Source: a virus | Lineage: Duplodnaviria; Caudoviricetes | Direction: 5' to 3' (one strand) | Virus record (IMG/VR): IMGVR_UViG_3300020045_005404 | Location: 1-48,012 of that record | DNA length: 48,012 bases | Shown: one piece after another, positions 770-47,838 of the stretch | Numbering within the stretch: position 1 is the stretch's first letter | Layout: each line of letters opens with the position of its first letter | Position numbers and translations under genes: made by a program | The notes under the pieces: generated by a model | What the model was told of the DNA's origin: nothing | Seen by the model: only the letters and a program-made list of their open reading frames with translations | Databases searched by the model: none

Positions 770-861
770 TATATTTACAAAAGCGCAGTAAGGCACGCTA
801 AACTAAAACATTATAATTCCGTCTTGTTTGATTCAGCCTTACGAATCTGCAAGGCGGTTTT
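770..861 (+). promoter_or_regulatory. Structured leader A (promoter-like box, loop-loop pairing, terminator-like hairpin)
   Basis: TATATTTA 770-777; GTAAGGC 788-794 complementary to GCCTTAC 836-842 in the loop of hairpin 819-857; T tract follows. Confidence 0.7.
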
Positions 862-875
862 AAATTTTATAGATT

Positions 876-1415
876 ATGGAAAAAGAAAAAACACCGTGGA
901 GAAAAAATCTCGACAAACGGTACATAAGCGGAGAAGATTTGCTTATGGGAGAAGAAATGGGAAAAGGATTGCGTAAAGAAATGCACGTTACCTTGGCTAA
1001 GTACGAGGACAGTCCAGCTTTTGACCAAAAAAAACAGGAAGAGGTAAATAAGACGGCTATTTGGCTAAAGGAATATCCAAGCGGAAAACTTATTTACAAG
1101 CCCGCATTATTGAACGTGATTAACGGATCATTCCTATCGAAAGAAATAGGAAACGACTCTTTATTTTTAGAGGACTTCGACACTAATAAGCCAGTCACTC
1201 TTTATGCATGTCCAGACAAAAGACACGGACATGTTGCCCGTTTTAAGAAATACATTGCGCCAAATGCCGAAAGTGACAAAGAGCCGATTATCAAGTTGGA
1301 AACATCCAAGTCATTAGCTGAACTAAAAACTAATTGGGATTCTTTGAATGACAATCAAAAGTTATTGCCAACCGTTATCGCCAAAAAAGAACTTCTTAAA
1401 ACCACATTGATATAA
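876..1415 (+). CDS. Recombination-module protein, putative ssDNA-annealing/binding partner of the YqaJ-like nuclease
   Basis: Directly upstream of the YqaJ-like gene; N-terminus resembles the 46133-46639 ORF in the same context. Confidence 0.5.
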   Translation: MEKEKTPWRKNLDKRYISGEDLLMGEEMGKGLRKEMHVTLAKYEDSPAFDQKKQEEVNKTAIWLKEYPSGKLIYKPALLNVINGSFLSKEIGNDSLFLEDFDTNKPVTLYACPDKRHGHVARFKKYIAPNAESDKEPIIKLETSKSLAELKTNWDSLNDNQKLLPTVIAKKELLKTTLI

Positions 1416-2119
1416 TGGTAGCGCATTTTGGAATTGACCAAGGTACAGAAGAATGGTTTAAAATGAAATGGGGTAAAATAGGAGGTTCTTTATCTAAAGG
1501 ATTGTTCGTTGATACCGATACGCTATTGCTTCAAATGATTGTCGAGCATACAGAAGATATTGATTTGGATTACGATAGCTACACTTCACAGGATATGCAA
1601 CGGGGGAACGAACTTGAACCGCTTGGTCGTTCGAGATTATCGGAATACCTTGGCGTGTCGCTTTTAAATTGCGGGTGGTTGGAATGTGAAGAAAATACGT
1701 TATTGGGTATTTCCCCTGACGGAATAACCGCAGACTTTAAAGTGAGCGCAGAAATTAAATGCCCAGCAGGTAAACGGCATATTTCAACGTGCAGGGAAAA
1801 CGAGATACCAAAAGACAACATACACCAATGCGTGCATTATTTTACAGTTAATCCGCATTTAGAGCGTCATTATTTTATGTCATTCAGGCCTGAAAGCATC
1901 AAGCCTATGTTCGTGAAGGAACTGACACGTTCTTCGTTAGTTGATTTGGGATTTACTAAAAAAGGTAAGATTAAAGAAGACCGAGGATTGGGTGTTAAGG
2001 AATACGTTAGCACAGAACCCGACTTAAGAACGGTTGCGGAATGGGTAGCAATATCCAAAGCAAACGCCACGAAACTAAAAGAAAATATAACAAAAGAAAT
2101 CGAACTATTAAAATTTTAA
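1415..2119 (+). CDS. YqaJ/lambda-exonuclease-like recombinase
   Basis: QGTEEW, MQRGNELEP, ISPDG, EIKCP and Q motifs. Confidence 0.85.
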   Translation: MVAHFGIDQGTEEWFKMKWGKIGGSLSKGLFVDTDTLLLQMIVEHTEDIDLDYDSYTSQDMQRGNELEPLGRSRLSEYLGVSLLNCGWLECEENTLLGISPDGITADFKVSAEIKCPAGKRHISTCRENEIPKDNIHQCVHYFTVNPHLERHYFMSFRPESIKPMFVKELTRSSLVDLGFTKKGKIKEDRGLGVKEYVSTEPDLRTVAEWVAISKANATKLKENITKEIELLKF

Positions 2120-2122
2120 ATT

Positions 2123-2407
2123 ATGGAATTCTCAGGTAAAGTAAAATCAATCAGCGCAGAACAACAAGTTAGCGCATCATTCAAAAAACGTGAATTGGTA
2201 GTCACAACCGACGAACAATATCCGCAGTCAATTCTCGTTGAATTCGTACAGGACAAGTGCGACTTGCTTAACGATATTTCAATCGGTCAGGATGTGAAAG
2301 TACACATCAATCTCGGAGGCAGAGAATGGGTTAATCCGCAAGGGGAAACTAAATATTTTAATTCAATTAAGGGTTGGAAGATTGAGAAAATAGGAAGCGG
2401 TTTCTAA
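2123..2407 (+). CDS. DUF3127-family (SSB-like) protein
   Basis: FKKRELVVTTDEQYPQ...GREW...YFNSIKGWKI pattern. Confidence 0.85.
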   Translation: MEFSGKVKSISAEQQVSASFKKRELVVTTDEQYPQSILVEFVQDKCDLLNDISIGQDVKVHINLGGREWVNPQGETKYFNSIKGWKIEKIGSGF

Positions 2408-2736
2408 TGTCAATCCCATCTAAAATAAACAGCCTGTCCTACGTTGAGTTTCCGAATGAAACCCCTAACGGAATACAGGCTTTAATAAATGAGTTGGAAC
2501 GCATAAAGCACAATCCTAACAAACAGCACTTGGCTGCGGTTAATATCTGCGCACAACACTTGGCAAAAGCAACCGTTATTGAGCGTTTCGAGCGTATAAA
2601 AGGTGTTTATTACAATTACGACAAGCGACTCTGGTATGCCGAGAAAATGACTAAAGGCAAGTTAAAGGTTATAAAATATTCCGCAAATCGCAACGAGGTT
2701 ATTTCAGCTTATCAGGAATATGTTAGAAACCATTAA
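2407..2736 (+). CDS. Hypothetical protein, possible AP2-like C-terminus
   Basis: KGVYYNYDKRLWYA resembles the AP2 beta-sheet start; TAATG coupling to upstream gene. Confidence 0.55.
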   Translation: MSIPSKINSLSYVEFPNETPNGIQALINELERIKHNPNKQHLAAVNICAQHLAKATVIERFERIKGVYYNYDKRLWYAEKMTKGKLKVIKYSANRNEVISAYQEYVRNH

Positions 2737-2860
2737 CCTATACCACAACCTCCGATACAACGAGCCAATACTTTACACCGATGTTGTCAGCGAGTGGTTG
2801 ATTGCTAAGTGTTGGTTGGAATATTGGGGATTTTATTTTGTTATAATCGATTAATTTTCA

Positions 2861-2935
2861 TATATTTATGTTCTCTCTGACCAAAGCAAAAACATTAAAT
2901 ACGGTCCAAAACTTAGAGAGGTTTTGGACTTTTTT
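2861..2935 (+). promoter_or_regulatory. Structured leader B
   Basis: TATATTTA; CTCTCTGA 2873-2880 pairs with loop TTAGAGAG 2913-2920 of hairpin GTCCAAAAC/GTTTTGGAC; T tract; ATG at 2939. Confidence 0.72.
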
Positions 2936-2938
2936 ATT

Positions 2939-4579
2939 ATGAAAAAATACACTCTTTACAATTACCAAGATAAAATGGTAAATGATACTTTCGAAAAATT
3001 AGAACCTTTTGAGTCGGTCCTAAATCAATCCGCAACAGGCTCAGGTAAAACAGTTATAATGTCGGAGTTCATAAAACGTTGGTTGGTCCTAAATCCAAAT
3101 AAAAAAGTATTGGTTTCGGTACATCGTGACGAACTTGTAAATCAAACATCTGACACGTTAGCTGAGTTTGGAATATTCAACGAAAAGATAACCCAAAAAT
3201 CAAAACCGACTTGGACCGCTGATGTTTACGTTGGAATGACTCAAACAATATGGAGTCGTAAATTATCACTAAATATCGGACTTCTTGTTATTGACGAAGC
3301 ACATGAACAGGTCCATGTAAAATCTTTTTCATTATTCGAAAATGCAAAGCGTGTAGGATTTACCGCAACCCCAATAATAAATAAACGGATTACATATTAC
3401 GAATGCGAGTACTGCAATAAACGGCACGAAACACGTGAGGTGTGCTGCTACAACGAAAAGGCTGAAAAATGGTCCGCTCCTGTTGTTATGGCTCAAACAT
3501 ACGATACTATAAATATTGGTCCGCCAATAAAACAATTGATTGATGAAGGTGCATTAGTTGATGAGGTTGTATATTGTTACGACTATTATTCAAGTCTAAA
3601 AGCAAAAGAGAATGATGATTTCGATGAGAATGAGATTGCCGAGGAATCAGTAAAGCACGATCTAAATGTTTTGGATGAATATAAAGAAAAAGCTTTAGGA
3701 AAAAAGACAATGATTTTTACAGCATCGACAAAGCAAAATATTTCTTTGGTCCAAACATTCTCGGAATATCCTATTAAATCTTACGACTCTGTAAACAATG
3801 ATACGTCGGAACGTAAAGATGTGGTCCAATGGTTTAAAGATACAGAAGGTGCGATACTTGTGTCAACAGGAACGTTTACAACAGGTTTCGATGTTCGTGA
3901 GGTTGAGTGCATTATTATCAACCGTCCGACAAAATCACTTTCATTATTTCATCAAATTGTTGGGCGTGGCGCAAGGACGGTAAAAGACGGGATGTTTAAA
4001 GACCATTTTATATTAATTGATTTAGGTGGCAATGTTGCCCGATTAGGTAAGTGGTCAGATCCGATTGATTGGCAGAAGATTTTCTTTATTGGATTAAACC
4101 CAGCACGCAAAAAAAAGGAAATTATTATACAATGTGACGAATGCGGTTTTAATTGGCTTGGACAAAACAAAGAACCGTGTCCGGACTGCGGCCACACGAA
4201 CCAAGTTATAAAAAAAGAACAGGCGTTAACGCTTTTCGATACTCCAGAATTAGAAGTGGTCCAAAAGAAAACGATGCTTGTTTCGAAAATCCCTATGCCG
4301 GACGGTAAAAAGATAATGGAATATGTTAGACGCACTACAAATAATAAGAACGATTACTTTAAATTGTTAATCGATAAGTATGTTGATTTATGGAAATTGA
4401 ACGGAGTGCCAAAAGAAAAGTTTGAATTAAGGAAAAGACAAAACACGGTGCGTATAAAAATCATGTCTTATCTTAAGACTCGTTATGCTTTTTGCAACAG
4501 TTTACAGTTTGGAGTTCCTCGGACCTACGAATATTTGATAGGAAAAATAGTCGAAAAATTAGAAGCAATATATAAGTGA
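2939..4579 (+). CDS. SF2 DEAH-type helicase with Zn ribbons
   Basis: ATGSGKT, DEAH, FTATP, TGFD, QIVGRGAR; CxxC pairs; ATG 2939 preferred over TTG 2924. Confidence 0.92.
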   Translation: MKKYTLYNYQDKMVNDTFEKLEPFESVLNQSATGSGKTVIMSEFIKRWLVLNPNKKVLVSVHRDELVNQTSDTLAEFGIFNEKITQKSKPTWTADVYVGMTQTIWSRKLSLNIGLLVIDEAHEQVHVKSFSLFENAKRVGFTATPIINKRITYYECEYCNKRHETREVCCYNEKAEKWSAPVVMAQTYDTINIGPPIKQLIDEGALVDEVVYCYDYYSSLKAKENDDFDENEIAEESVKHDLNVLDEYKEKALGKKTMIFTASTKQNISLVQTFSEYPIKSYDSVNNDTSERKDVVQWFKDTEGAILVSTGTFTTGFDVREVECIIINRPTKSLSLFHQIVGRGARTVKDGMFKDHFILIDLGGNVARLGKWSDPIDWQKIFFIGLNPARKKKEIIIQCDECGFNWLGQNKEPCPDCGHTNQVIKKEQALTLFDTPELEVVQKKTMLVSKIPMPDGKKIMEYVRRTTNNKNDYFKLLIDKYVDLWKLNGVPKEKFELRKRQNTVRIKIMSYLKTRYAFCNSLQFGVPRTYEYLIGKIVEKLEAIYK

Positions 4580-4595
4580 CACATCGTAATTTAAT

Positions 4596-4622
4596 AAAAC
4601 CCCAATAAAATGGGGTTTTTTT
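4596..4622 (+). terminator. Intrinsic terminator
   Basis: AAAACCCCA-ataaaa-TGGGGTTTT plus T tract. Confidence 0.7.
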
Positions 4623-4841
4623 GTTTTTATCCCCGTGCGTTATCGCAAAAAAAGTGGTCCAACTCCCTATATAAAAAAATGCACTTTTCTAAAAAACACG
4701 TTTTTTTTAATCAGCAACCAAAAATTAAACGACAATACGACACTTTTTTAAAACTTTCCTTATTTTACAATACTTTAAGCGTGTTTTATACCGTGTCTTA
4801 TCTTTTATTGTAATTTTATTTGGATATTACACATAAAGCAC

Positions 4842-4934
4842 TATCTTTGCTTCACTCTCTGAATCTACAAAAGCATTATACTAAATCCTTTAATGATACG
4901 GAAGTCAGAGAGCCGTTGATTTAAGGGATTTTTT
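4842..4934 (+). promoter_or_regulatory. Structured leader C
   Basis: TATCTTTG promoter; CTCTCTGA 4855-4862 complementary to TCAGAGAG 4905-4912 in the loop of hairpin AAATCCTTTAA/TTAAGGGATTT; T tract. Confidence 0.75.
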
Positions 4935-11149: not shown

Positions 11150-12562
11150 ATGGATATTGATTTCCTGTTGCAGAACCTAAGACAGCCTACGGTATTGGTT
11201 CCCGAAATATTCAAGTGCCACGATTCATATTACGACTCCGTAAAGCATGAGAATGAATACAACCCTAAGAAACACAAGGTAAACAATACTGCAATAAGGA
11301 AGGATAAAATAGTTTACTTGCCCCGTGTTGATATGAGTACAGGCGAACCAACAGGCGAAGTTTACTCTTCGACAATTCCTGTTACACGTATCGCTTTGGC
11401 TTACCAGCAATTGCTAACAAATTCCGCAAATGCATTTTTAACAGGCGGTAATATTTCATTGAAGGCAAACCCAAACGGAACGGCAGAACAAGCGGCATAC
11501 GATAAAATAATGCAGATTTGGCAAGACGAGAAGTTGGATTTCGTTAACAATAAAATCGGACATGCTCTGTATTCGGAAACCGAAGTAACTGAGATTTGGT
11601 ACACTAAAAAAGCAGGAACTGAGGTAAAATTGAAATGCAACGTTTATTCACCAAAGGCGGGTTATAAACTTATTCCTATATTCGATGAATACGATGACTT
11701 GATTGCTTTTGCACGCTCATACGCAACGGTAAACAAAAAGTTAACGGTTAATCATCTTGACGTTTACACAGACGACAAACTCACCCGTTATCGCAAAGAA
11801 TATAACGGAGATTGGTTTTTAGTGCCGTTTGCTCCTTTGGCTGATGGCGTAAACCAAGTTGATAGCATTCCACTAATTTACGGCAAGATTCCTGTAATAT
11901 ATTACCAAATCGATAAGCCTATTTGGGAAAACGCACAACCTACAATCGAAAGACAGGAAATATTAAAATCTAATCATTCAGACCAAAACGATTACACGGG
12001 TAGTCCGATGTTATTGGCAACTGGAACTATAAAGGGATTTTCAGCAAAGGGAGAAACAGGGAAAGTGTTGGAAGCAGAAGAAGGCGCAGACCTTAAATTT
12101 GTTTCCGACACCAAAGCACCCGATTCCGTTAAACTGGAAATGGAAAACAACAACAATGATATTTTTGGTATGACAATGCAAGCGGATTTATCTCAGGCGA
12201 GTATGCAGAAGATTTCCGGTCAGCTTTCAGGGCCGATTATGGACAGGATGCTTATTGCACCGCACACATTCGCCAAGAACATGCAGCGTGGCGTTTACGG
12301 ACTTGGCATACAGAGACGATTAAATTTTCTTATTTCGGCAGTTTGCGCTATATATCCCGAATGCAAAGGAGGCGAGAGATTGCGAATTAAAGCAGATTAC
12401 GACCTTTTCAGGATTGGAGGGGACAACGATAAGATTGATATGCTGGTTAAGGCTGTAGATGGCGGAATTATGACCGTATCTGATGCGGTTTATCAGAACC
12501 CTTTAGTTGATGATCCGAAAAAGACAGTTGAGGAATTGGAAAACAAAACCCCTACCGTTTAA
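11150..12562 (+). CDS. Portal protein (SPP1 gp6-like)
   Basis: Follows terL; GKIPVIYY, SNHSDQNDYTGSP motifs; promoter-like TAACTTTG just upstream. Confidence 0.88.
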   Translation: MDIDFLLQNLRQPTVLVPEIFKCHDSYYDSVKHENEYNPKKHKVNNTAIRKDKIVYLPRVDMSTGEPTGEVYSSTIPVTRIALAYQQLLTNSANAFLTGGNISLKANPNGTAEQAAYDKIMQIWQDEKLDFVNNKIGHALYSETEVTEIWYTKKAGTEVKLKCNVYSPKAGYKLIPIFDEYDDLIAFARSYATVNKKLTVNHLDVYTDDKLTRYRKEYNGDWFLVPFAPLADGVNQVDSIPLIYGKIPVIYYQIDKPIWENAQPTIERQEILKSNHSDQNDYTGSPMLLATGTIKGFSAKGETGKVLEAEEGADLKFVSDTKAPDSVKLEMENNNNDIFGMTMQADLSQASMQKISGQLSGPIMDRMLIAPHTFAKNMQRGVYGLGIQRRLNFLISAVCAIYPECKGGERLRIKADYDLFRIGGDNDKIDMLVKAVDGGIMTVSDAVYQNPLVDDPKKTVEELENKTPTV

Positions 12563-12573
12563 AGTAAGGGTTT
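12546..12573. terminator. Probable bidirectional terminator between portal and convergent cassette
   Basis: AAACCCCTAC/GTAAGGGTTT inverted repeat at convergent gene ends. Confidence 0.55.
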
Positions 12574-12658
12574 AATACTGAATTGGTTTCGATGCAATTT
12601 TGCTACCTGCTTTAAGCCGAATCGAACGGCACGAATTCACCTATATTCTATCAGTATT
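12574..12658 (-). ncRNA. Putative T-loop-containing multi-stem RNA
   Basis: Closing stem AATACTGA/TCAGTATT; minus strand has GAAT-ATAGGTGA-ATTC then GCCG-TTCGATT-CGGC. Confidence 0.4.
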
Positions 12659-12661
12659 TTT

Positions 12662-12934
12662 TTATATAATTTTAAGGGCATTCATGATAAACATCAAATC
12701 AATAGTAGTATTTAAAAAGCCCTTGAAATAATTTGAATGGTTAGGTTCTTTTTCATTGTTGTTAAATATGATAAACAATCCATTTTCACAAACTTCTAAA
12801 ATCCAATCAGTTTCTTTATACCTGTATTGGGACATTTCGGAATCTTTGCCCATCAAGAACCAACCAACACTATTATAGGTGGCTACATCCATTTTTATAA
12901 GATTCTGTAAATAGTTATAATTTGTGTTTTCCAC
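12662..12934 (-). CDS. Hypothetical protein (antisense cassette)
   Basis: 90-aa AT-rich ORF. Confidence 0.6.
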   Translation of the reverse strand: MENTNYNYLQNLIKMDVATYNSVGWFLMGKDSEMSQYRYKETDWILEVCENGLFIIFNNNEKEPNHSNYFKGFLNTTIDLMFIMNALKII

Positions 12935-12936
12935 AA

Positions 12937-13137
12937 CTAAACTTTCTTTTTAAAGTTATCAAAATGCCCTACGTAACCGAACCTTCCAAAAAATTTCATA
13001 ACGGTAACGGCTCTGCATAACCCTAAATTTATATTCCTACACTTCAAACTAAATGCGCTTTGCTTCATTTGTGGCGTTATTTGAGTGTATGGTTTATGCA
13101 TTTTCTTAATGTCCGAAATAACTTCCCGATTTGTCAT
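12937..13137 (-). CDS. Small basic hypothetical protein, possibly DNA-binding
   Basis: MTNREVISDIKKMHKPY...; ATG 13137 preferred. Confidence 0.55.
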   Translation of the reverse strand: MTNREVISDIKKMHKPYTQITPQMKQSAFSLKCRNINLGLCRAVTVMKFFGRFGYVGHFDNFKKKV

Positions 13138-13256
13138 TATAATAATATTAAGGGTTTGCGCAAATATAATCAATTATATTATACCGTATTTTATTTTATC
13201 CAATATTTCCAAATTTTCACGTTATTTTTACATCAAACTTTAAACGTTCTAAAATT

Positions 13257-25636: not shown

Positions 25637-25726
25637 TATGTTTGCTTTAAATCCGCCAAGATGTAAAACATTAAAAAAATGCCTTTTCTTAATTCTGCTT
25701 GGCGGTGGATTTTGAAAGGGCGTTTT
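25637..25726 (+). promoter_or_regulatory. Structured leader D
   Basis: TATGTTTG; CCGCCAAG 25653-25660 complementary to CTTGGCGG 25698-25705 in the loop of hairpin 25676-25726. Confidence 0.75.
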
Positions 25727-25732
25727 CAGTTT

Positions 25733-26230
25733 ATGGAATTAGGTAATTACTTAGGTTATATTGTAAATAAAAAAGGACAAATTTTTACTAAGAAAAATGG
25801 TTCAATTATGAAAACAACCTTAAATGACAAAGGATATCCTTGTGTTGGGTTGTCAGTAAATGGTAAGAAGGTATTTAAAAGAGTACATAGAATAGTTGCG
25901 GAAACCTTTATACCTAACCCAGAAAATAAGCCACACGTCAACCACAAAGACAGAGATAGGGCAAACTACCATTTTGATAACCTTGAATGGTGTACTCCTT
26001 CCGAAAATGTTATTCATTCAGTAAGAAATGGAGGCAGAACAAATTGGAAAAGAAACAATACAGGAGAGTCAAACGGCAATTCAAAATTAAAATGGAAGCA
26101 GATTTTAGCAATAAGAGCTTTGTATTCTTGTAAGGAATTTAGTCAAAATGATATTGCTGATATATTCAACATTACTCAGGGCGAAGTAGGTAAAATAGTA
26201 AATCATAAAATATGGAAGCAAGAGAAATAA
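25733..26230 (+). CDS. HNH homing endonuclease with C-terminal HTH
   Basis: VHRIVAETFIPNPENKPHVNHKD...NLEWCT..EN; ATG 25733 preferred. Confidence 0.9.
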   Translation: MELGNYLGYIVNKKGQIFTKKNGSIMKTTLNDKGYPCVGLSVNGKKVFKRVHRIVAETFIPNPENKPHVNHKDRDRANYHFDNLEWCTPSENVIHSVRNGGRTNWKRNNTGESNGNSKLKWKQILAIRALYSCKEFSQNDIADIFNITQGEVGKIVNHKIWKQEK

Positions 26231-35098: not shown

Positions 35099-35125
35099 AA
35101 CCGCCTTGTACATTTGGCGGTTTTT
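35099..35125 (+). terminator. Intrinsic terminator
   Basis: AACCGCC/GGCGGTT plus T tract. Confidence 0.75.
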
Positions 35126-35161: not shown

Positions 35162-35270
35162 TACATTCGCAATAACAAAGACGGAGTCCGCTAGCTCCCG
35201 ATGAAGCCGAGTTGATTTAGTCAACCTTAGAGAAAAGCCTCAAATATTCTAGCGGATGTTTGGGGTTTTC
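35162..35270 (+). promoter_or_regulatory. Structured leader E
   Basis: TACATTCG; hairpin GGAG-TCCGCTAG-CTCC whose loop is complementary to CTAGCGGA 35249-35256 at the tip of a 14-bp hairpin. Confidence 0.72.
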
Positions 35271-38729: not shown

Positions 38730-38752
38730 TATATTTGTACTCAGATAACAAC
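38730..38752 (+). promoter_or_regulatory. Putative early promoter, copy 1 (TATATTTGTACTCAGATAACAAC)
   Basis: TAnnTTTG box; identical 23 bp at 42459-42481. Confidence 0.75.
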
Positions 38753-38776: not shown

Positions 38777-39010
38777 ATGCCAAGAAAAGAGATTGACCCA
38801 AAAGAAAAGAAAAAACAAATCCCTTTTATGACCGAAACTAAAAAGGTCGATTTGTTGGGCAAAAACACCTGTCAGGAACTCGCAGTATTTGCCGTTGACA
38901 AAGCATATAAAAAGGCGCTAAGAGATTTAGACAACGTGTCGATTGACCTCGCCTACAACGAAGCAATGAATTCACATAACCCGCAAAAGGTTGCGGATAA
39001 AAAAGAGTAG
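38777..39010 (+). CDS. Small basic putative DNA-binding protein
   Basis: MPRKEIDPKEKKKQIPF N-terminus. Confidence 0.6.
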   Translation: MPRKEIDPKEKKKQIPFMTETKKVDLLGKNTCQELAVFAVDKAYKKALRDLDNVSIDLAYNEAMNSHNPQKVADKKE

Positions 39011-39014
39011 GGAA

Positions 39015-43443: not shown

Positions 43444-43473
43444 CCGAGCCGATTGGCTTTTAAAATAGACAAA

Positions 43474-44021
43474 ATGAAGACATTTAACAACGACGAAAGT
43501 TTAAAAAATGAATTATTAAAAGACCTTTTACGCCATCAAGAACTTGATGCTTTTGTACAGGGTAAATGGTTAACAGGTGAAAAAGTGGAAGGGAACGGAT
43601 TTAAAGGCTGTTTCTACGGATGCACAATGCAAACAGAATCAAACGCAATCGGTAAATTTTCTGAAAAATACAGCGTAGACTTATGGTATTGTCATTTGAC
43701 TGAAAAATTATTCGAGGGGCTTCCTAAAGAAGAAGCTTTAGAATTTCCTTATAAATCTATTGAAATAATTCCATTAGGATATGATTTCAATAGACTTAAA
43801 TCCGCATGGTTCAAAGAGAATCTTTTGAAGCAAAAGCAGTGGGTGAAAGATGCATCTGTCTTAAAAGTGCTGGATGAATGCGCTTCGTTATTCAATGTTC
43901 CATTTAATGAAATTTCTGAGTCAGCAGCGAGGTCAGCAGCGGAGTCAGCGAGGTCAGCAGCGTGGTCAGCGAGGTCAGCAGCGGAGTCAGCGTGGTCAGC
44001 GGAGTCAGCAGCGGAGTCAGC
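43474..44021 (+). CDS. N-terminal part of the SAA-repeat protein (continues at window start)
   Basis: MKTFNNDESLK...KGCFYGCT...LFEGLP then SAARSAAE repeats; the tail after 44021 is foreign. Confidence 0.8.
43921..44021 (+). repeat. Second copy of the SA(A)X repeat (terminal overlap with 1-99)
   Basis: 43923-44021 equals 1-99 except at one base. Confidence 0.92.
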
Positions 44022-44146
44022 CGGGACATCAGCGCGGTCAGCGGGGCTGTACCGTTCGGGCTGCGCCAGAGAATCATTTCACGAAAATTCTTGGGACGTT
44101 CATCAGTGCCCCAATCGCCTGTACCACGTAAGCCTGCAATAGCCAT
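44016..44146 (-). CDS. Truncated N-terminus of a major capsid protein from a second phage
   Basis: MAIAGLRGTGDWGTDERPKNFREMILWRSPNGTAPLTALMSR after a scaffold-like gene; cut off at the repeat. Confidence 0.65.
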
Positions 44147-44170: not shown

Positions 44171-45073
44171 CTAATATAGGTCTTCGTTTTCCAATTCTGC
44201 GGCCAGTGCTGTAAATGGATTATCAGTCGTTACGACTGCGCCGCCATGACCACCTTGCGATGGAATGAAAGGCTTTGTCGTGGATGCTTGAGCAGTCGAA
44301 GCCGCTTGCTGCTGCGTACTCTCGCCAGGCATTTGACGAATCGGTAATCCTCTTACCATTCTGACCATGTTCCCTACTTGAAAAGCTGCTAGCTTAGCAT
44401 CGGCTTCAGGATTCATTTGGCGAAATGTAGCTCCGGCCATTTTAATATCGTTAAGATATTTTGGGTCGGTCAAATCATCATTAGCAGCAAAGAACGTCTG
44501 CTTTTGAGTTTGCTCGGCGTTAGTGTTTCGACTAATTTGCTCGATTAACGTAGGAAGAATCTGAGGCAGGTGCGAAAGCACATTCGCAATAACTCGCGTT
44601 TGCACAAGCGCCGCCATGCGAGGAAGAACCTTTTCGGGCTCAGTCGCCAGCAACTCAACATCTTCCGGAGACAATTCGTATTCCGGCGTCAGTTGCTCAA
44701 TTGATTTTGTTTCCCAGTCATTCCAGTCAAACGGTTCGGCTTTTGCCGCAGGAGTTTCCGGTGCCGCTGGCGTCTCGGGCGTCGTAACCGTAGTCGTTTC
44801 AGTAACTGTCGTGCTTACATTCGTTTGTGCTTCCGGAGCTGTCACTGCGGGCTGAGCAGGCGTTTCCGTAATCTTTGTTTCCTCGTTTGTTTCAGCTGAC
44901 TTCTCTGGCGTATCCACCGAGAATTCACCCTCAATAAAGTCATCGGAACTAGACGAATCAAGTTCGTCCCACTGAGCTTGTGAGTTGGATTCGGACTCAC
45001 TCGCGGGAGCAGCAGAAGAACTGGTATCGACGTCACCGTCATCTTCGGCTAAAAATCTATGCTTTATTCTCAT
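44171..45073 (-). CDS. Scaffolding-like protein (second phage)
   Basis: Acidic, T/P/A-rich disordered N-terminus; sits before the capsid gene. Confidence 0.65.
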   Translation of the reverse strand: MRIKHRFLAEDDGDVDTSSSAAPASESESNSQAQWDELDSSSSDDFIEGEFSVDTPEKSAETNEETKITETPAQPAVTAPEAQTNVSTTVTETTTVTTPETPAAPETPAAKAEPFDWNDWETKSIEQLTPEYELSPEDVELLATEPEKVLPRMAALVQTRVIANVLSHLPQILPTLIEQISRNTNAEQTQKQTFFAANDDLTDPKYLNDIKMAGATFRQMNPEADAKLAAFQVGNMVRMVRGLPIRQMPGESTQQQAASTAQASTTKPFIPSQGGHGGAVVTTDNPFTALAAELENEDLY

Positions 45074-45362
45074 CTTGGCTTTCCTTCTTTCGCTCGTTAA
45101 TTTCGTAAGTCAAATTTTCAATTGTTGTCGCCACAAGATTAGCTATCGACAACCGCCCTTCAATTTGGCCCTTCATGTATTCTTGCCGATACACGCCGTC
45201 AGATGTTTCCAACGGCTGCATCACCAATGTAGTTTGCATCGTGTCGACTTGCCCTTGCAAGAGCTCCATTAAAGATTTCGTGCAAGGGTCTTCTATCCAC
45301 TTTTCCCACAGCCGCTTTTGGCCATGCAAGCCTTCTGCGGCGCTTTCAACATCATCACTCAT
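45057..45362 (-). CDS. Hypothetical protein between portal and scaffold (second phage)
   Basis: EYMKGQIEG motif; position. Confidence 0.65.
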   Translation of the reverse strand: MSDDVESAAEGLHGQKRLWEKWIEDPCTKSLMELLQGQVDTMQTTLVMQPLETSDGVYRQEYMKGQIEGRLSIANLVATTIENLTYEINERKKESQDENKA

Positions 45363-46090
45363 CCAGTTGCTCCCATCCCAGGTACTTGACCTGGCTCGTT
45401 AAGGTTCGGTTGCGCAGCGCTAACTGGCACCATGTTTCCCGCCTGGACTTGATTTTGAAGCTGTCCATCGTTCATCACTTGCACGCGGAAGGAATCAATA
45501 TTCTTAAGTCCCGCGAGCTGTGCCACAAAACTAAATATCTTGGGCACGTCATAGGTCTGCGCAACGCCAGGCATAGTTGGAATACCTTGCAGGATTTGCT
45601 GCCACAGATTTACTTGAGCAAAGCGATCAACTGGCAGCGTCCCATCGACTGGTGTAAAGTCAAAGAATCCAGCAATGTCTTCGCCGCCGGCTTCAAGATA
45701 ACGTCCGGCAAACTGTGCAGCATTTCCGACAATACGATACTTGCGCTTCGCGTCGTACATTTGCTGAGACAATTGTGTAAGCTTTTGTGCCCAAGGACTG
45801 AAGCCCATCGCGCTAAAGTATTCGCAATTCGTTTTCAGGCGGTTGATACCAAACGTCGTCGAGCTTCGAACTTCAGTCGCAGTCTTCCGGTCGCCACCTA
45901 TCATACCCATGACAGTGTCATTCACGCCGCTGACACGCTGAAGTAATTCTGCTACCATTTGAGAGTCGTTCACGTGGCTGCGGGTAATGTCGCCAACGGC
46001 CAGTTGATTAACTGCTAGTCGCGCATCTGTGCCATAAGCAATTGGTTTTAAGCGAATCAACTTGCCAGGCTCTGGATTCTCCAAGTCCTT
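45359..46090 (-). CDS. C-terminal fragment of a podovirus-type portal protein (second phage)
   Basis: PGKLIRLK, QRVSGVNDTVMG...RKTATEV motif; N-terminus missing. Confidence 0.75.
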   Translation of the reverse strand, partial: KDLENPEPGKLIRLKPIAYGTDARLAVNQLAVGDITRSHVNDSQMVAELLQRVSGVNDTVMGMIGGDRKTATEVRSSTTFGINRLKTNCEYFSAMGFSPWAQKLTQLSQQMYDAKRKYRIVGNAAQFAGRYLEAGGEDIAGFFDFTPVDGTLPVDRFAQVNLWQQILQGIPTMPGVAQTYDVPKIFSFVAQLAGLKNIDSFRVQVMNDGQLQNQVQAGNMVPVSAAQPNLNEPGQVPGMGATG

Positions 46091-46172
46091 TTATTCCCAT
46101 TAATTTATGTATTTCACTTGCTGTAAACTTACCTATTCTTGCGTTGTGCCAATCTTCTGAGCGTTGTTCCAT
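46077..46172 (-). CDS. Truncated N-terminus of a YqaJ-like exonuclease (third phage; not in ORF track)
   Basis: MEQRSEDWHNARIGKFTASEIHKLMGIKGLGE then a break. Confidence 0.75.
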
Positions 46173-46639
46173 AATGTTTCGATTTCTGGTGTTACTGTAT
46201 ATTTTGATTTAATTTGTTCAATTGTTGCATTTGCCATAATAGCTGATTTAAAATTTGACTCGGCAAATAAAGGCTTAGGCTTAGCAATTGCAGGCTGTAA
46301 AGGTTTTATTCTCATCCCCCCAACTATTTGACCTTTCATTTTTACGTTAGGGTCAACATAAAGTTCAATAGGTATATCATTCCAATGGTCTGTATCAACT
46401 GATTTTGTTTTAGAAAATCCACGAATAATATGGGCATTTCCTGCATTTAAAACCATTGGCTTAATATTTTCATAGAAGTATGCAATATTATGATTCCCTT
46501 TATTTCCTGCAACTACAACACCTATTTCTTGTTTAACATGTTTAATTGTAAAAATAAGCGGTTTGCCTTGTTCAATTAATTCTTCTAAATCGACAACTCC
46601 TAAATGGTCTGATTTATAAACTTTTCTATAATTTGCCAT
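46133..46639 (-). CDS. Recombination-module protein (third phage), counterpart of 876-1415
   Basis: YRKVYKSDHLG...KPMVLN..N...W....IELY; precedes YqaJ. Confidence 0.6.
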   Translation of the reverse strand: MANYRKVYKSDHLGVVDLEELIEQGKPLIFTIKHVKQEIGVVVAGNKGNHNIAYFYENIKPMVLNAGNAHIIRGFSKTKSVDTDHWNDIPIELYVDPNVKMKGQIVGGMRIKPLQPAIAKPKPLFAESNFKSAIMANATIEQIKSKYTVTPEIETLWNNAQKIGTTQE

Positions 46640-46642
46640 AAC

Positions 46643-46840
46643 TTAAATTTTATATAATTTTTTTAATTGAATAGTTAAGTATGCAGGGTGTTCTTGATAT
46701 TCCTTAATTAACTCACTTGTTTTTTTTATTTTCTTTAAAAGTTCTTGATTCCATTCTTGTTGTTCTTCAAGTTCAGTCTGTGGCTCGCATTCTATTTCGT
46801 TGATAGGATTAAGCGGATTATATTCGTTGTATGTATCCAT
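46643..46840 (-). CDS. Hypothetical protein
   Basis: 65-aa ORF. Confidence 0.6.
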   Translation of the reverse strand: MDTYNEYNPLNPINEIECEPQTELEEQQEWNQELLKKIKKTSELIKEYQEHPAYLTIQLKKLYKI

Positions 46841-46842
46841 GA

Positions 46843-47385
46843 TTAAAAATTTTCTAATACTTTGTTAATTAATTCAATGTGTTTTTCTTTTGTATCTAAT
46901 AAAACTCCGTTTAAATCTTTATACATAAAAGTTTTTTGGTCGTACTTTATGAATCTATGTATTTTAGAATGGTCTTTTATGCTTAGTTCTATAACATCTT
47001 TAGCAAATTCTAAATTATAATTCCAATGATGTAATTGGTTAGTTTTAATTAGCGGTCTTAAGTTGCTAGACAAACTTTTAGCTTTTACTTTTTCTGGATA
47101 TTTCTTTATATATCTATCCATTATTATTTTTTTGGCTTCTGGAGTCGGCTTGTGTTTTTCTTTGTAATTTAAACGATAGTACTTTTCACGCTGTCTAAAC
47201 CTTTCTTTTTCTAAACCTTCAGGTGTAGATGTTAATTTACTTGTAGCTTGTTTAGTATCTAGTCTAGTACACACCTTACACTTCCCTAAATATCCACCCT
47301 TCATTTGCGGGTGTTTATAAAAATGTATAAATTCTTTTTGCTCTTTACATTTAAAGCAAATCTTTGTAAACTGTAAATCCATCAT
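46843..47385 (-). CDS. HNH-like endonuclease with N-terminal Zn ribbon
   Basis: KICFKCK...CKVC; LHHWNY...H...H; TATCTTTG promoter upstream on the minus strand. Confidence 0.65.
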   Translation of the reverse strand: MMDLQFTKICFKCKEQKEFIHFYKHPQMKGGYLGKCKVCTRLDTKQATSKLTSTPEGLEKERFRQREKYYRLNYKEKHKPTPEAKKIIMDRYIKKYPEKVKAKSLSSNLRPLIKTNQLHHWNYNLEFAKDVIELSIKDHSKIHRFIKYDQKTFMYKDLNGVLLDTKEKHIELINKVLENF

Positions 47386-47457
47386 AATAAATAGTTTTAA
47401 TTAATATTTACAAAGATATAATTTTAAAACGGTAAAATCTAATTTATTTTCTACATT

Positions 47458-47838
47458 TTAGAACGGCAAATCCAAATCCTCTTCTTCTACTGCGTTAGTA
47501 CTAGGTTTAAATGCTTCTGCTGATGGCATTGCAGGTTTTTCTGTATTTGATTCAGATTTAAATACTTTCCAAGCGTCAAGGGTATTAAACCATCTTCTGT
47601 TTTCTTCTGGTTCGCCATCTTTTAAATAAGAACGACCTTTTAAATTGTAATCAATGTCCACAAATTGACCTTCTTTATTAAATTCAATAAAATTATCTGC
47701 TCTATCTTGCGATACTTCAAATTGAACTTCTTGTGGATATTGACTATCTAACTTTACAATAAACTCAACTTTTTTATAAGTATCAGTTACTTGTTGTAAA
47801 GCTTTAATTTTAATAATTTGTACATTTTTTAATTCCAT
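47458..47838 (-). CDS. DUF3127-family (SSB-like) protein with acidic DLPF tail
   Basis: QYPQEVQFE, NLKGR, FNTLDAWKV. Confidence 0.85.
   Translation of the reverse strand: MELKNVQIIKIKALQQVTDTYKKVEFIVKLDSQYPQEVQFEVSQDRADNFIEFNKEGQFVDIDYNLKGRSYLKDGEPEENRRWFNTLDAWKVFKSESNTEKPAMPSAEAFKPSTNAVEEEDLDLPF

Follow-up and report, generated by a model that had tools for sequence, protein, structure and literature searches.

How might a phage use transcripts whose first bases are complementary to the loop of a hairpin just ahead of the start codon? The question is raised by IMG/VR virus record IMGVR_UViG_3300020045_005404 (Caudoviricetes), whose entire 48,012 bases form the window analyzed here. Five genes of the window lie behind a promoter-like box and a leader in which a segment of 7-8 bases, the code X, is complementary to a segment X' in the apical loop of a long hairpin (P2). 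In all five copies (A to E, Table 1), P2 is followed by 4-6 T, and the ATG lies 9-26 nucleotides (nt) past the stem. The pairing of X with X' is called the kiss. An earlier reading of the window from its letters (the original prediction) had put forward these five X/X' pairs, and all were recovered at their positions, with one G-U pair in copy B. It had also proposed a covarying kissing-loop or pseudoknot RNA family in promoter-proximal leaders, which is supported by the swap controls and subfamily alignments below. We regard the kissing leader as real and as probably a ligand-free form of the terminator-loop kissing design, with a function suggested by analogy.

Detection in the window and in related phages

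The detector required a promoter box, X, a hairpin with X' in its loop, and a T tract, and its thresholds were set with the window copies in view. It returned six matches in the window, the five copies and a spurious one overlapping the terminator at 35099, compared with 0.83 on average over 325 local shuffles, only one of which reached five or more. An earlier version had found A, B, C, and E together with one false match in coding DNA and had missed D. Because the detector was tuned on the five window copies, weight was placed on blind tests in relatives.

Two blind sets were picked by motif, each scan covering about 120 of some 400 estimated stretches. Among viral loci picked by box and linker motif, a complement of at least 7 bp was present in 16 of 108, compared with 1.27 (maximum 5) when the halves were swapped. 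With a second linker variant, the complement was found in 27 of 103 (1.9 in swaps, maximum 7). The third set consisted of 96 helicase or primase homologs picked by protein. Here 43 of the 56 leaders with an upstream TAnnTTTG carried the complement, compared with 3.2 (maximum 8) in swaps, and so did 4 of the 40 leaders without this box.

Over 1.65 Mb, the detector gave 166 matches, 141 of which were intergenic with an open reading frame (ORF) following. With later loci, the collection grew to 192 elements, 146 of them distinct, with at least 96 non-redundant members and 72 codes. The cultured Flavobacterium phages mumin, lillamy, and morran carry elements with compensatory code changes. Phage mumin9-1 has two elements, one identical in 34 records and the other with relatives in 46. 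Moreover, mumin9-1, lillamy9-1, and morran9-1, all phages of Flavobacterium sp. LMO9, share one scaffold, in which the codes GTGGAACG, GTGAGACG, and GTGAGAAG each have a matching partner. With these cultured phages on a single host, the element can be tested now.

No credible element was seen in phi46:1, P12024S, FPSV-S1, lotta8-1, phi18:1, or 50 kb of MW202828, nor among 120 bacterial loci picked by motif. A model (R1), run with a positive control, found none in 5 and 151 host genomes, where 150 and 28 candidates per genome were scored out of thousands; R1 covers one subfamily and these host searches were shallow, so that not found does not mean absent. Rfam matched none of the elements in the window (E up to 5), in 17 loci (E up to 5), or in 6 loci (gathering threshold), in agreement with the original prediction that this is not a named RNA family.

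Covariation and codes

Homologous leaders carried the compensatory changes expected of a conserved pairing. In MAFFT alignments of two subfamilies, with 10 and 11 hand-picked members, the kiss pairs were 100% standard with no one-sided change, and 3 of 7 and 6 of 8 pairs, respectively, differed on both sides. Sliding X against its X' partners abolished the pairing signal in both alignments. Among 45 close pairs of leaders, the kiss changed at 26 of 671 positions, other stems at 81 of 683 and 74 of 988, and the linker at 97 of 833. The change rate of the kiss was thus 3.9%, compared with 7.5-11.9% for other stems. The code changed in 9 of the 45 close pairs. Diversifying selection or fast diversification of the codes was not supported.

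GU stood at the start of one code strand in 59 of the 72 codes (24 expected), and 12 seven-mers, some of them overlapping, were seen in both polarities (0.9 expected). Two leaders of one scaffold type (L300:16540-16640 and L326:15586-15690) have their P1 and P2 loops swapped, as exact reverse complements, P1 being the small stem that may hold X.

Most leaders within one genome are orthogonal, with exact cross-pairs of at least 6 in 7 of 92. The cross-pairing of copies B and C, which the original prediction had considered possible for helicase and primase, was confirmed: the helicase X can pair with the P2 loop of the primase leader not only in the window but also in 4 of 8 related loci, where three different codes are used and the stems are unlike. 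Cross-pairing is also possible between copies D and E (-11.7 and -9.0 kcal/mol). Among multi-element loci, 7 of 27 had a cross-pair, compared with 2.8 when permuted, and 1 of 300 permutations reached this level.

Structure of the leaders

Transcription starts were predicted by the rule for Flavobacterium psychrophilum, in which the promoter box spans -12 to -5 in the available text of PMC9723704. By this rule, the leaders are 65-100 bases long and the code lies at the predicted start, with letters that differ in most copies. In 61 of the 87 leaders scored (of 96), the first paired base fell between -2 and +1 relative to the predicted start. In the window, the first paired bases of A, B, and C fit the predicted start and those of D and E come 4 and 9 nt later. 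Not every part of the architecture first proposed is general within the window. The TAnnTTTG box is perfect in C and D, whereas A and B have TATATTTA and E has TACATTCG. X is in a clear small hairpin in A and E, but not in B and C, where it begins at +1 and +2, or in D, where it begins at +5. The A-rich linker motif is in the leaders of A to D, while in E it sits 5' of the promoter box, outside the leader. Across the whole window neither AAAACATT (12 against 9.3 expected) nor AAAASCATT (7 against 4.1) was counted as enriched.

Further anatomy was scored on 73 leaders, after one likely false match had been removed. P1 was present in 54, and the minimal form without P1 has the code as its first bases. 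In 64, X' sits directly against the 3' strand of P2, mostly with 1-2 unpaired nt on its 5' side, and this placement is the usual shape of a kissing loop. The linker motif AARAHAYT was found in 43 linkers, compared with 12.7 in shuffles, some members having been picked by that motif. P2 folded better on the sense strand in 67, a figure favored by the selection of matches.

Among the 96 non-redundant members, 42 have a tandem-GA internal loop beneath the apical stem, and 86 have a G/C base followed by a run of 4-8 U (median 5) at the foot of P2. Since the first two U were unpaired in the fold in 28 of these 86, they are kept without a partner. P2 and the U tract resemble an intrinsic terminator and may act as one. 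The first U is a median of 18 nt from the ATG, so the predicted stop precedes the AUG. The distance from stem to ATG is 8-48 nt across the family.

Table 1. The five kissing leaders of the window, with their promoter-like boxes, genes, and neighboring terminators
Feature	Start	End	Strand	Details
Copy A -7 promoter-like box TATATTTA	770	777	+	predicted +1 at 782
Copy A leader	782	861	+	P1 782-799 with X 788-794; AAAACATT 805-812 in linker; P2 819-857 with X' 836-842; U tract 858-861
179-aa ORF behind copy A	876	1415	+	without Pfam/PHROG family; first gene of exonuclease-SSB (single-stranded DNA-binding protein) block
Copy B -7 promoter-like box TATATTTA	2861	2868	+	predicted +1 at 2873
Copy B leader	2873	2935	+	X 2873-2880 at predicted +1, no P1; AAAACATT 2889-2896; P2 2903-2929 with X' 2913-2920; U tract 2930-2935
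Superfamily 2 DNA helicase gene	2939	4579	+	
Ordinary intrinsic-terminator-like hairpin	4596	4623	+	long U tract; behind helicase gene
Copy C -7 box TATCTTTG	4842	4849	+	predicted +1 at 4854
Copy C leader	4854	4934	+	X 4855-4862; AAAAGCATT 4869-4877; P2 4884-4928 with 4x4 tandem-GA internal loop and X' 4905-4912; U tract 4929-4934
VirE-type primase/helicase gene	4955	7303	+	
Copy D -7 box TATGTTTG	25637	25644	+	predicted +1 at 25649
Copy D leader	25649	25726	+	X 25653-25660; AAAACATT 25665-25672; P2 25676-25726 with X' 25698-25705
HNH endonuclease gene	25733	26230	+	inserted among tail genes
Terminator-like hairpin 5' of copy E promoter	35099	35125	+	
Copy E variant -7 box TACATTCG	35162	35169	+	predicted +1 at 35174
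Copy E leader	35174	35272	+	P1 35183-35198 with X 35187-35194; middle hairpin 35211-35225; P2 35230-35272 with X' 35249-35256
336-aa ORF behind copy E	35291	36301	+	without a family; five related phage loci have homologs

Genes behind the leaders

Of the recombination, helicase, primase, and moron genes that the original prediction placed under this control, the helicase and primase were borne out, while D heads an HNH endonuclease gene and E a protein without a family. The product behind copy A matched no family either, and is likely to be a recombinase, judged from its position before the exonuclease and SSB. Over 25679-25733, the HNH frame would be 18 codons longer if begun at an in-frame upstream ATG, which is within the 5' arm of copy D's hairpin.

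Across the family, 29 of 68 ORFs were of helicase or primase size, which had been selected for, and were omitted from the tally. The 44 proteins scanned included six GIY-YIG, six HNH/NUMOD4, three methylases, and two helicases; the rest were one each of DUF6291, YopX, weak helix-turn-helix, and beta-solenoid proteins, and 23 without a family. One code can stand before unrelated genes in different phages; for example, the code of copy A is also found ahead of methylases. Therefore, the code is not an operator for the product of its own gene, and the leaders move between genes. No unknown window ORF that could be a phage regulator was common to the element-bearing loci, most of which are partial.

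Proposed transcription attenuation in cis

The reading that we prefer, with confidence about evenly balanced, is that the element acts as a ligand-free cis transcription attenuator that doses replication and nuclease genes. During synthesis, the code at the start of the transcript would bind the loop of the terminator-like hairpin, the kiss would hinder closure of the hairpin base, and a fixed fraction of polymerases would then read through into the gene. The conserved A-rich linker motif and the tandem-GA loop may allow the setting to be tuned by a protein of host or phage, by RNase E/G, or by RNase Y. Such a device could supply low doses of helicase, primase, recombination proteins, methylases, and homing endonucleases from strong host-type promoters.

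We prefer this reading because the kiss of the guanidine-IV riboswitch gives readthrough and because upstream structure weakens terminators. The available text on guanidine-IV describes a kiss that hinders the complete terminator stem from forming and thereby causes readthrough, possibly via a stretched linker (PMC11611296, PMC7736828, PMC9788692), and by this analogy the phage kiss may favor readthrough. Structure upstream of a terminator weakens termination in general, according to the accessible part of bioRxiv 10.64898/2026.06.17.733018. Phage T4 doses homing nucleases through weak 5' terminators or hairpins at mobE, segF, and I-TevI, as described in the portion of PMC2988022 at hand. The T4 hairpins are single and do not kiss, whereas the phage leader also heads core helicase and primase genes.

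The design is less unprecedented than the original prediction implied. Guanidine-IV (GGAM-1 or mepA motif; variant Gd4v) follows the same plan of two pseudoknotted hairpins in about 90 nt, the 3' one being a Rho-independent terminator (PMC7736828, PMC11611296, and PMC9788692, as available). The two differ in that the phage kiss has 7-8 Watson-Crick pairs that covary freely in either polarity around no invariant pocket, while the guanidine-IV kiss has only 3-4 pairs by our reading of the construct in the accessible part of PMC7736828. Furthermore, the phage leader starts at the predicted +1, its P1 is dispensable, its linker is mostly slack, and it heads replication and nuclease genes in Bacteroidota phages; the leaders are not upstream of sugE, MATE, GNAT, or similar genes. 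Since the kiss is long, fully Watson-Crick, and variable, it is likely to be ligand-free.

Several observations weigh against attenuation. The contour/rod ratio of the linker has a median of 1.55 and is at most 1.2 in 15 of 87 leaders, chiefly of the middle-hairpin form, compared with about 0.9 by a hand estimate for the guanidine-IV construct (PMC7736828, as available). The linker is thus usually long enough for the kiss and the full terminator to coexist. Linker length did not rise with rod length (rho -0.48, partly owing to missed P1 stems). No conserved antiterminator helix was present, as the linker could pair with an arm in 48 of 88 leaders, equal to the 47.9 in shuffles and swaps. In the middle-hairpin leaders, the stem continues past the first U run in 10 of 16, which blurs the termination site, and U-rich stretches also precede start codons without the element. 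Finally, the primase leader of one relative (L002:7340-7440, on the same contig as L273) has lost X and kept P2 and the U tract, and the helicase leader of another (L286) has only a plain hairpin and U7, so that the expression of essential genes does not strictly depend on the kiss.

Alternative readings

The alternative that survives best, which we nevertheless consider unlikely, is a post-transcriptional module, in which the kiss would fold the 5' end of the mRNA compactly and set its stability and ribosome access to a start without a Shine-Dalgarno site, the U tract being mainly part of the start region. The fold begins at the predicted +1, and the minimal form starts with the code itself, as such a module would. 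Translation of tisB reportedly requires a 5' pseudoknot (PMC7708055), which also counts for it. RNase E/G and RNase Y are encoded in two Flavobacterium genomes, in which RNase J was not found. The RNase E consensus is RN^WUU. AARAHAYT lies directly 5' of the hairpin, as RNase Y sites do in the part of PMC11321564 available, and in some leaders a covarying stem extension ends 3-4 nt from the AUG. However, no kiss would be needed to protect the end, since a plain 5' hairpin would do so, the large majority of members retain the G/C-then-U junction at the foot of P2, and the range of stem-to-ATG distances is too broad for a positional ribosome element.

The cross-pairing between leaders suggests readings in trans. 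In one of them, the element would be part of a ligand-free, addressable RNA network: every promoter would have its own kissing code of 7-8 bases, the cis kiss would license readthrough, and matching leader RNAs that have accumulated would shut it off. Helicase and primase would then be dosed together, as would phages that co-infect with an identical code, while other operons are insulated. We consider this network doubtful. The code shared by helicase and primase in one clade is a hint of trans cross-talk. In another reading, slightly more doubtful still, feedback would be code-specific: terminated or cleaved leaders would accumulate, kiss matching nascent leaders, block the cis kiss, and raise termination, in the style of P4 CI RNA or plasmid antisense RNAs. 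Trans feedback would explain the cross-pairs of helicase with primase and of D with E, their excess over permutation, and the slower change of the kiss, as extra partners would cause. It would also fit the primase loop of L002/L273, which still matches the helicase code after its own X was lost, and the X repeat just before the ATG in 4 of 146 leaders. Nevertheless, most leaders in a genome are orthogonal, there is no sign of fast code diversification, and a terminated leader should kiss itself. The trans model stays a minority reading because the code-sharing loci are close kin and not independent, sharing is absent from 4 of the 8 helicase/primase pairs, and there was no enrichment of a general third copy of X (1 against 1.2 and 4 against 2.8 expected) or of an antisense promoter (5 against 5.9 expected, by the -7 box). 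A subfamily with the X repeat between U tract and ATG (L029, L052, L062, L118, L016, L047) heads small putative replication proteins, and its P2 loop has two possible partners.

The closest phage precedents for a trans reading are P4 CI RNA (seqA/seqB/seqC) and the C4 antisense RNA of P1 and P7. In the accessible text of PMC4825925, they too are phage leaders with a 5' segment complementary to a later loop, in which premature termination controls replication genes. In P4 CI and C4, the targets lie on both sides of the effector loop, whereas our leaders have no general downstream third site, no cloverleaf, and no Rfam C4 match, and occur in several orthogonal copies per genome. In the IncI plasmid ColIb-P9, a replication gene is controlled by cis loop pairing in the repZ pseudoknot against a trans kiss with the Inc antisense RNA. 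The loop of copy D contains TTGGCG, as in this system, but the leaders show no antisense promoter enrichment, leader peptide, or Shine-Dalgarno site.

It is very improbable that the leader, like the putRNA of phage HK022, attaches to RNA polymerase and renders it insensitive to terminators further downstream. Both are structured RNAs of about 70 nt with two stems that lie where the transcript begins (for the leader, by prediction): in the available part of PMC9378689, putRNA acts on elongation, begins at about +3, and has about 73 nt and two stems. Several copies per genome and conserved linker and internal-loop motifs would also suit such a role. However, ordinary terminators lie directly behind the helicase gene and gene E, with the next gene having its own leader, and for this reason we consider the role unlikely. 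Moreover, the stems and loops vary freely, no conserved polymerase-contact sequence is apparent, the second stem is terminator-like, and a loop-loop kiss is not described for put in that part of PMC9378689.

There is even less chance that the element is a metabolite-sensing riboswitch related to guanidine-IV. The two-hairpin pseudoknot plan is shared, and the frequent GU start of the codes recalls the terminator-loop G-U that is essential in guanidine-IV (PMC7736828, as available), but the loops of the family have no invariant nucleotides and 12 seven-mers occur in both polarities. A kiss of 7-8 Watson-Crick pairs should be stable without a ligand (PMC10907184, as available). The downstream genes are unrelated to a metabolite, and no Rfam match to the guanidine-IV model was found at the elements, the presence of that model in Rfam 15 being unconfirmed.

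Equally remote is an independent small RNA (decoy or anti-defense) with incidental readthrough, for although promoter, compact fold, and terminator would give a stable RNA of about 85 nt, an ORF start lies within 45 nt in 141 of 154 non-coding detector matches and the leader travels with the first gene behind the promoter, being absent where the helicase is an internal gene. A main role as a stand-alone RNA of about 80 nt, considered in the original prediction, is likewise unlikely, since the element comes directly after the promoter of essential genes.

Resemblances to HDV-like, pistol, and ToxI RNAs were dropped, as the conserved cores are lacking. UG27 non-coding RNA arrays, described in the available part of bioRxiv 10.64898/2026.09.22.753630 as units of about 150 nt beside a reverse transcriptase, were also set aside; no such gene was found among the 66 window ORFs.

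Novelty and use

No description of the kissing-leader family was found in the literature searched, with the supplements of PMC5737381 and part of PMC10690425 outside reach. Four short motifs were absent from the searchable part of PMC10690425, and an unnamed candidate in its other supplements is possible. As an RNA family, the leaders are widespread among phages and covary very strongly, and no catalogue searched lists them. They would be the natural ligand-independent counterpart of the guanidine-IV terminator-loop kissing switch and, if the attenuator reading is true, a direct test bed for control of intrinsic termination by a tertiary contact. Attenuation would also explain how replication and nuclease genes are dosed from host-type promoters in Flavobacterium phages. 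The dozens of natural orthogonal codes could be ready-made parts for gene control in Bacteroidota.

Genome setting

The window encodes terminase, portal, capsid, and tail proteins, helicase, VirE-type primase, exonuclease, SSB, methylases, and HNH proteins. Since its primase and helicase are closest, among cultured phages, to those of Flavobacterium, Cellulophaga, and Nonlabens phages, the host is probably a member of Flavobacteriia.

A block of about 50% GC at 44171-46084 (minus strand) stands out from surroundings of 24-43% GC. It encodes a partial protein resembling a portal or head-tail adaptor and a scaffold-like protein, while the phage's own portal is at 11150; the block may be either foreign DNA or an assembly chimera. 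Positions 1-230 and 43453-44142 contain tandem repeats and an ORF encoding low-complexity repeats of the SAAESA(W/R)SA type. Between the portal and the next head gene, about 700 bases (12563-13256) have no long plus-strand ORF. A second SSB and a second recombination-type block are encoded at 46133-47838 (minus strand), behind promoter-like sites without a kissing leader. Promoter-like sites at 38730 and 42459 have a common 22-base start (TATATTTGTACTCAGATAACAA) and lie ahead of small-ORF clusters, also without a kissing leader; they are possibly an early promoter class. A weak, sub-threshold match to DUF805b RNA was seen at 38980-39013, and an above-threshold DUF805b RNA is present in lillamy9-1 (L478:190-224).

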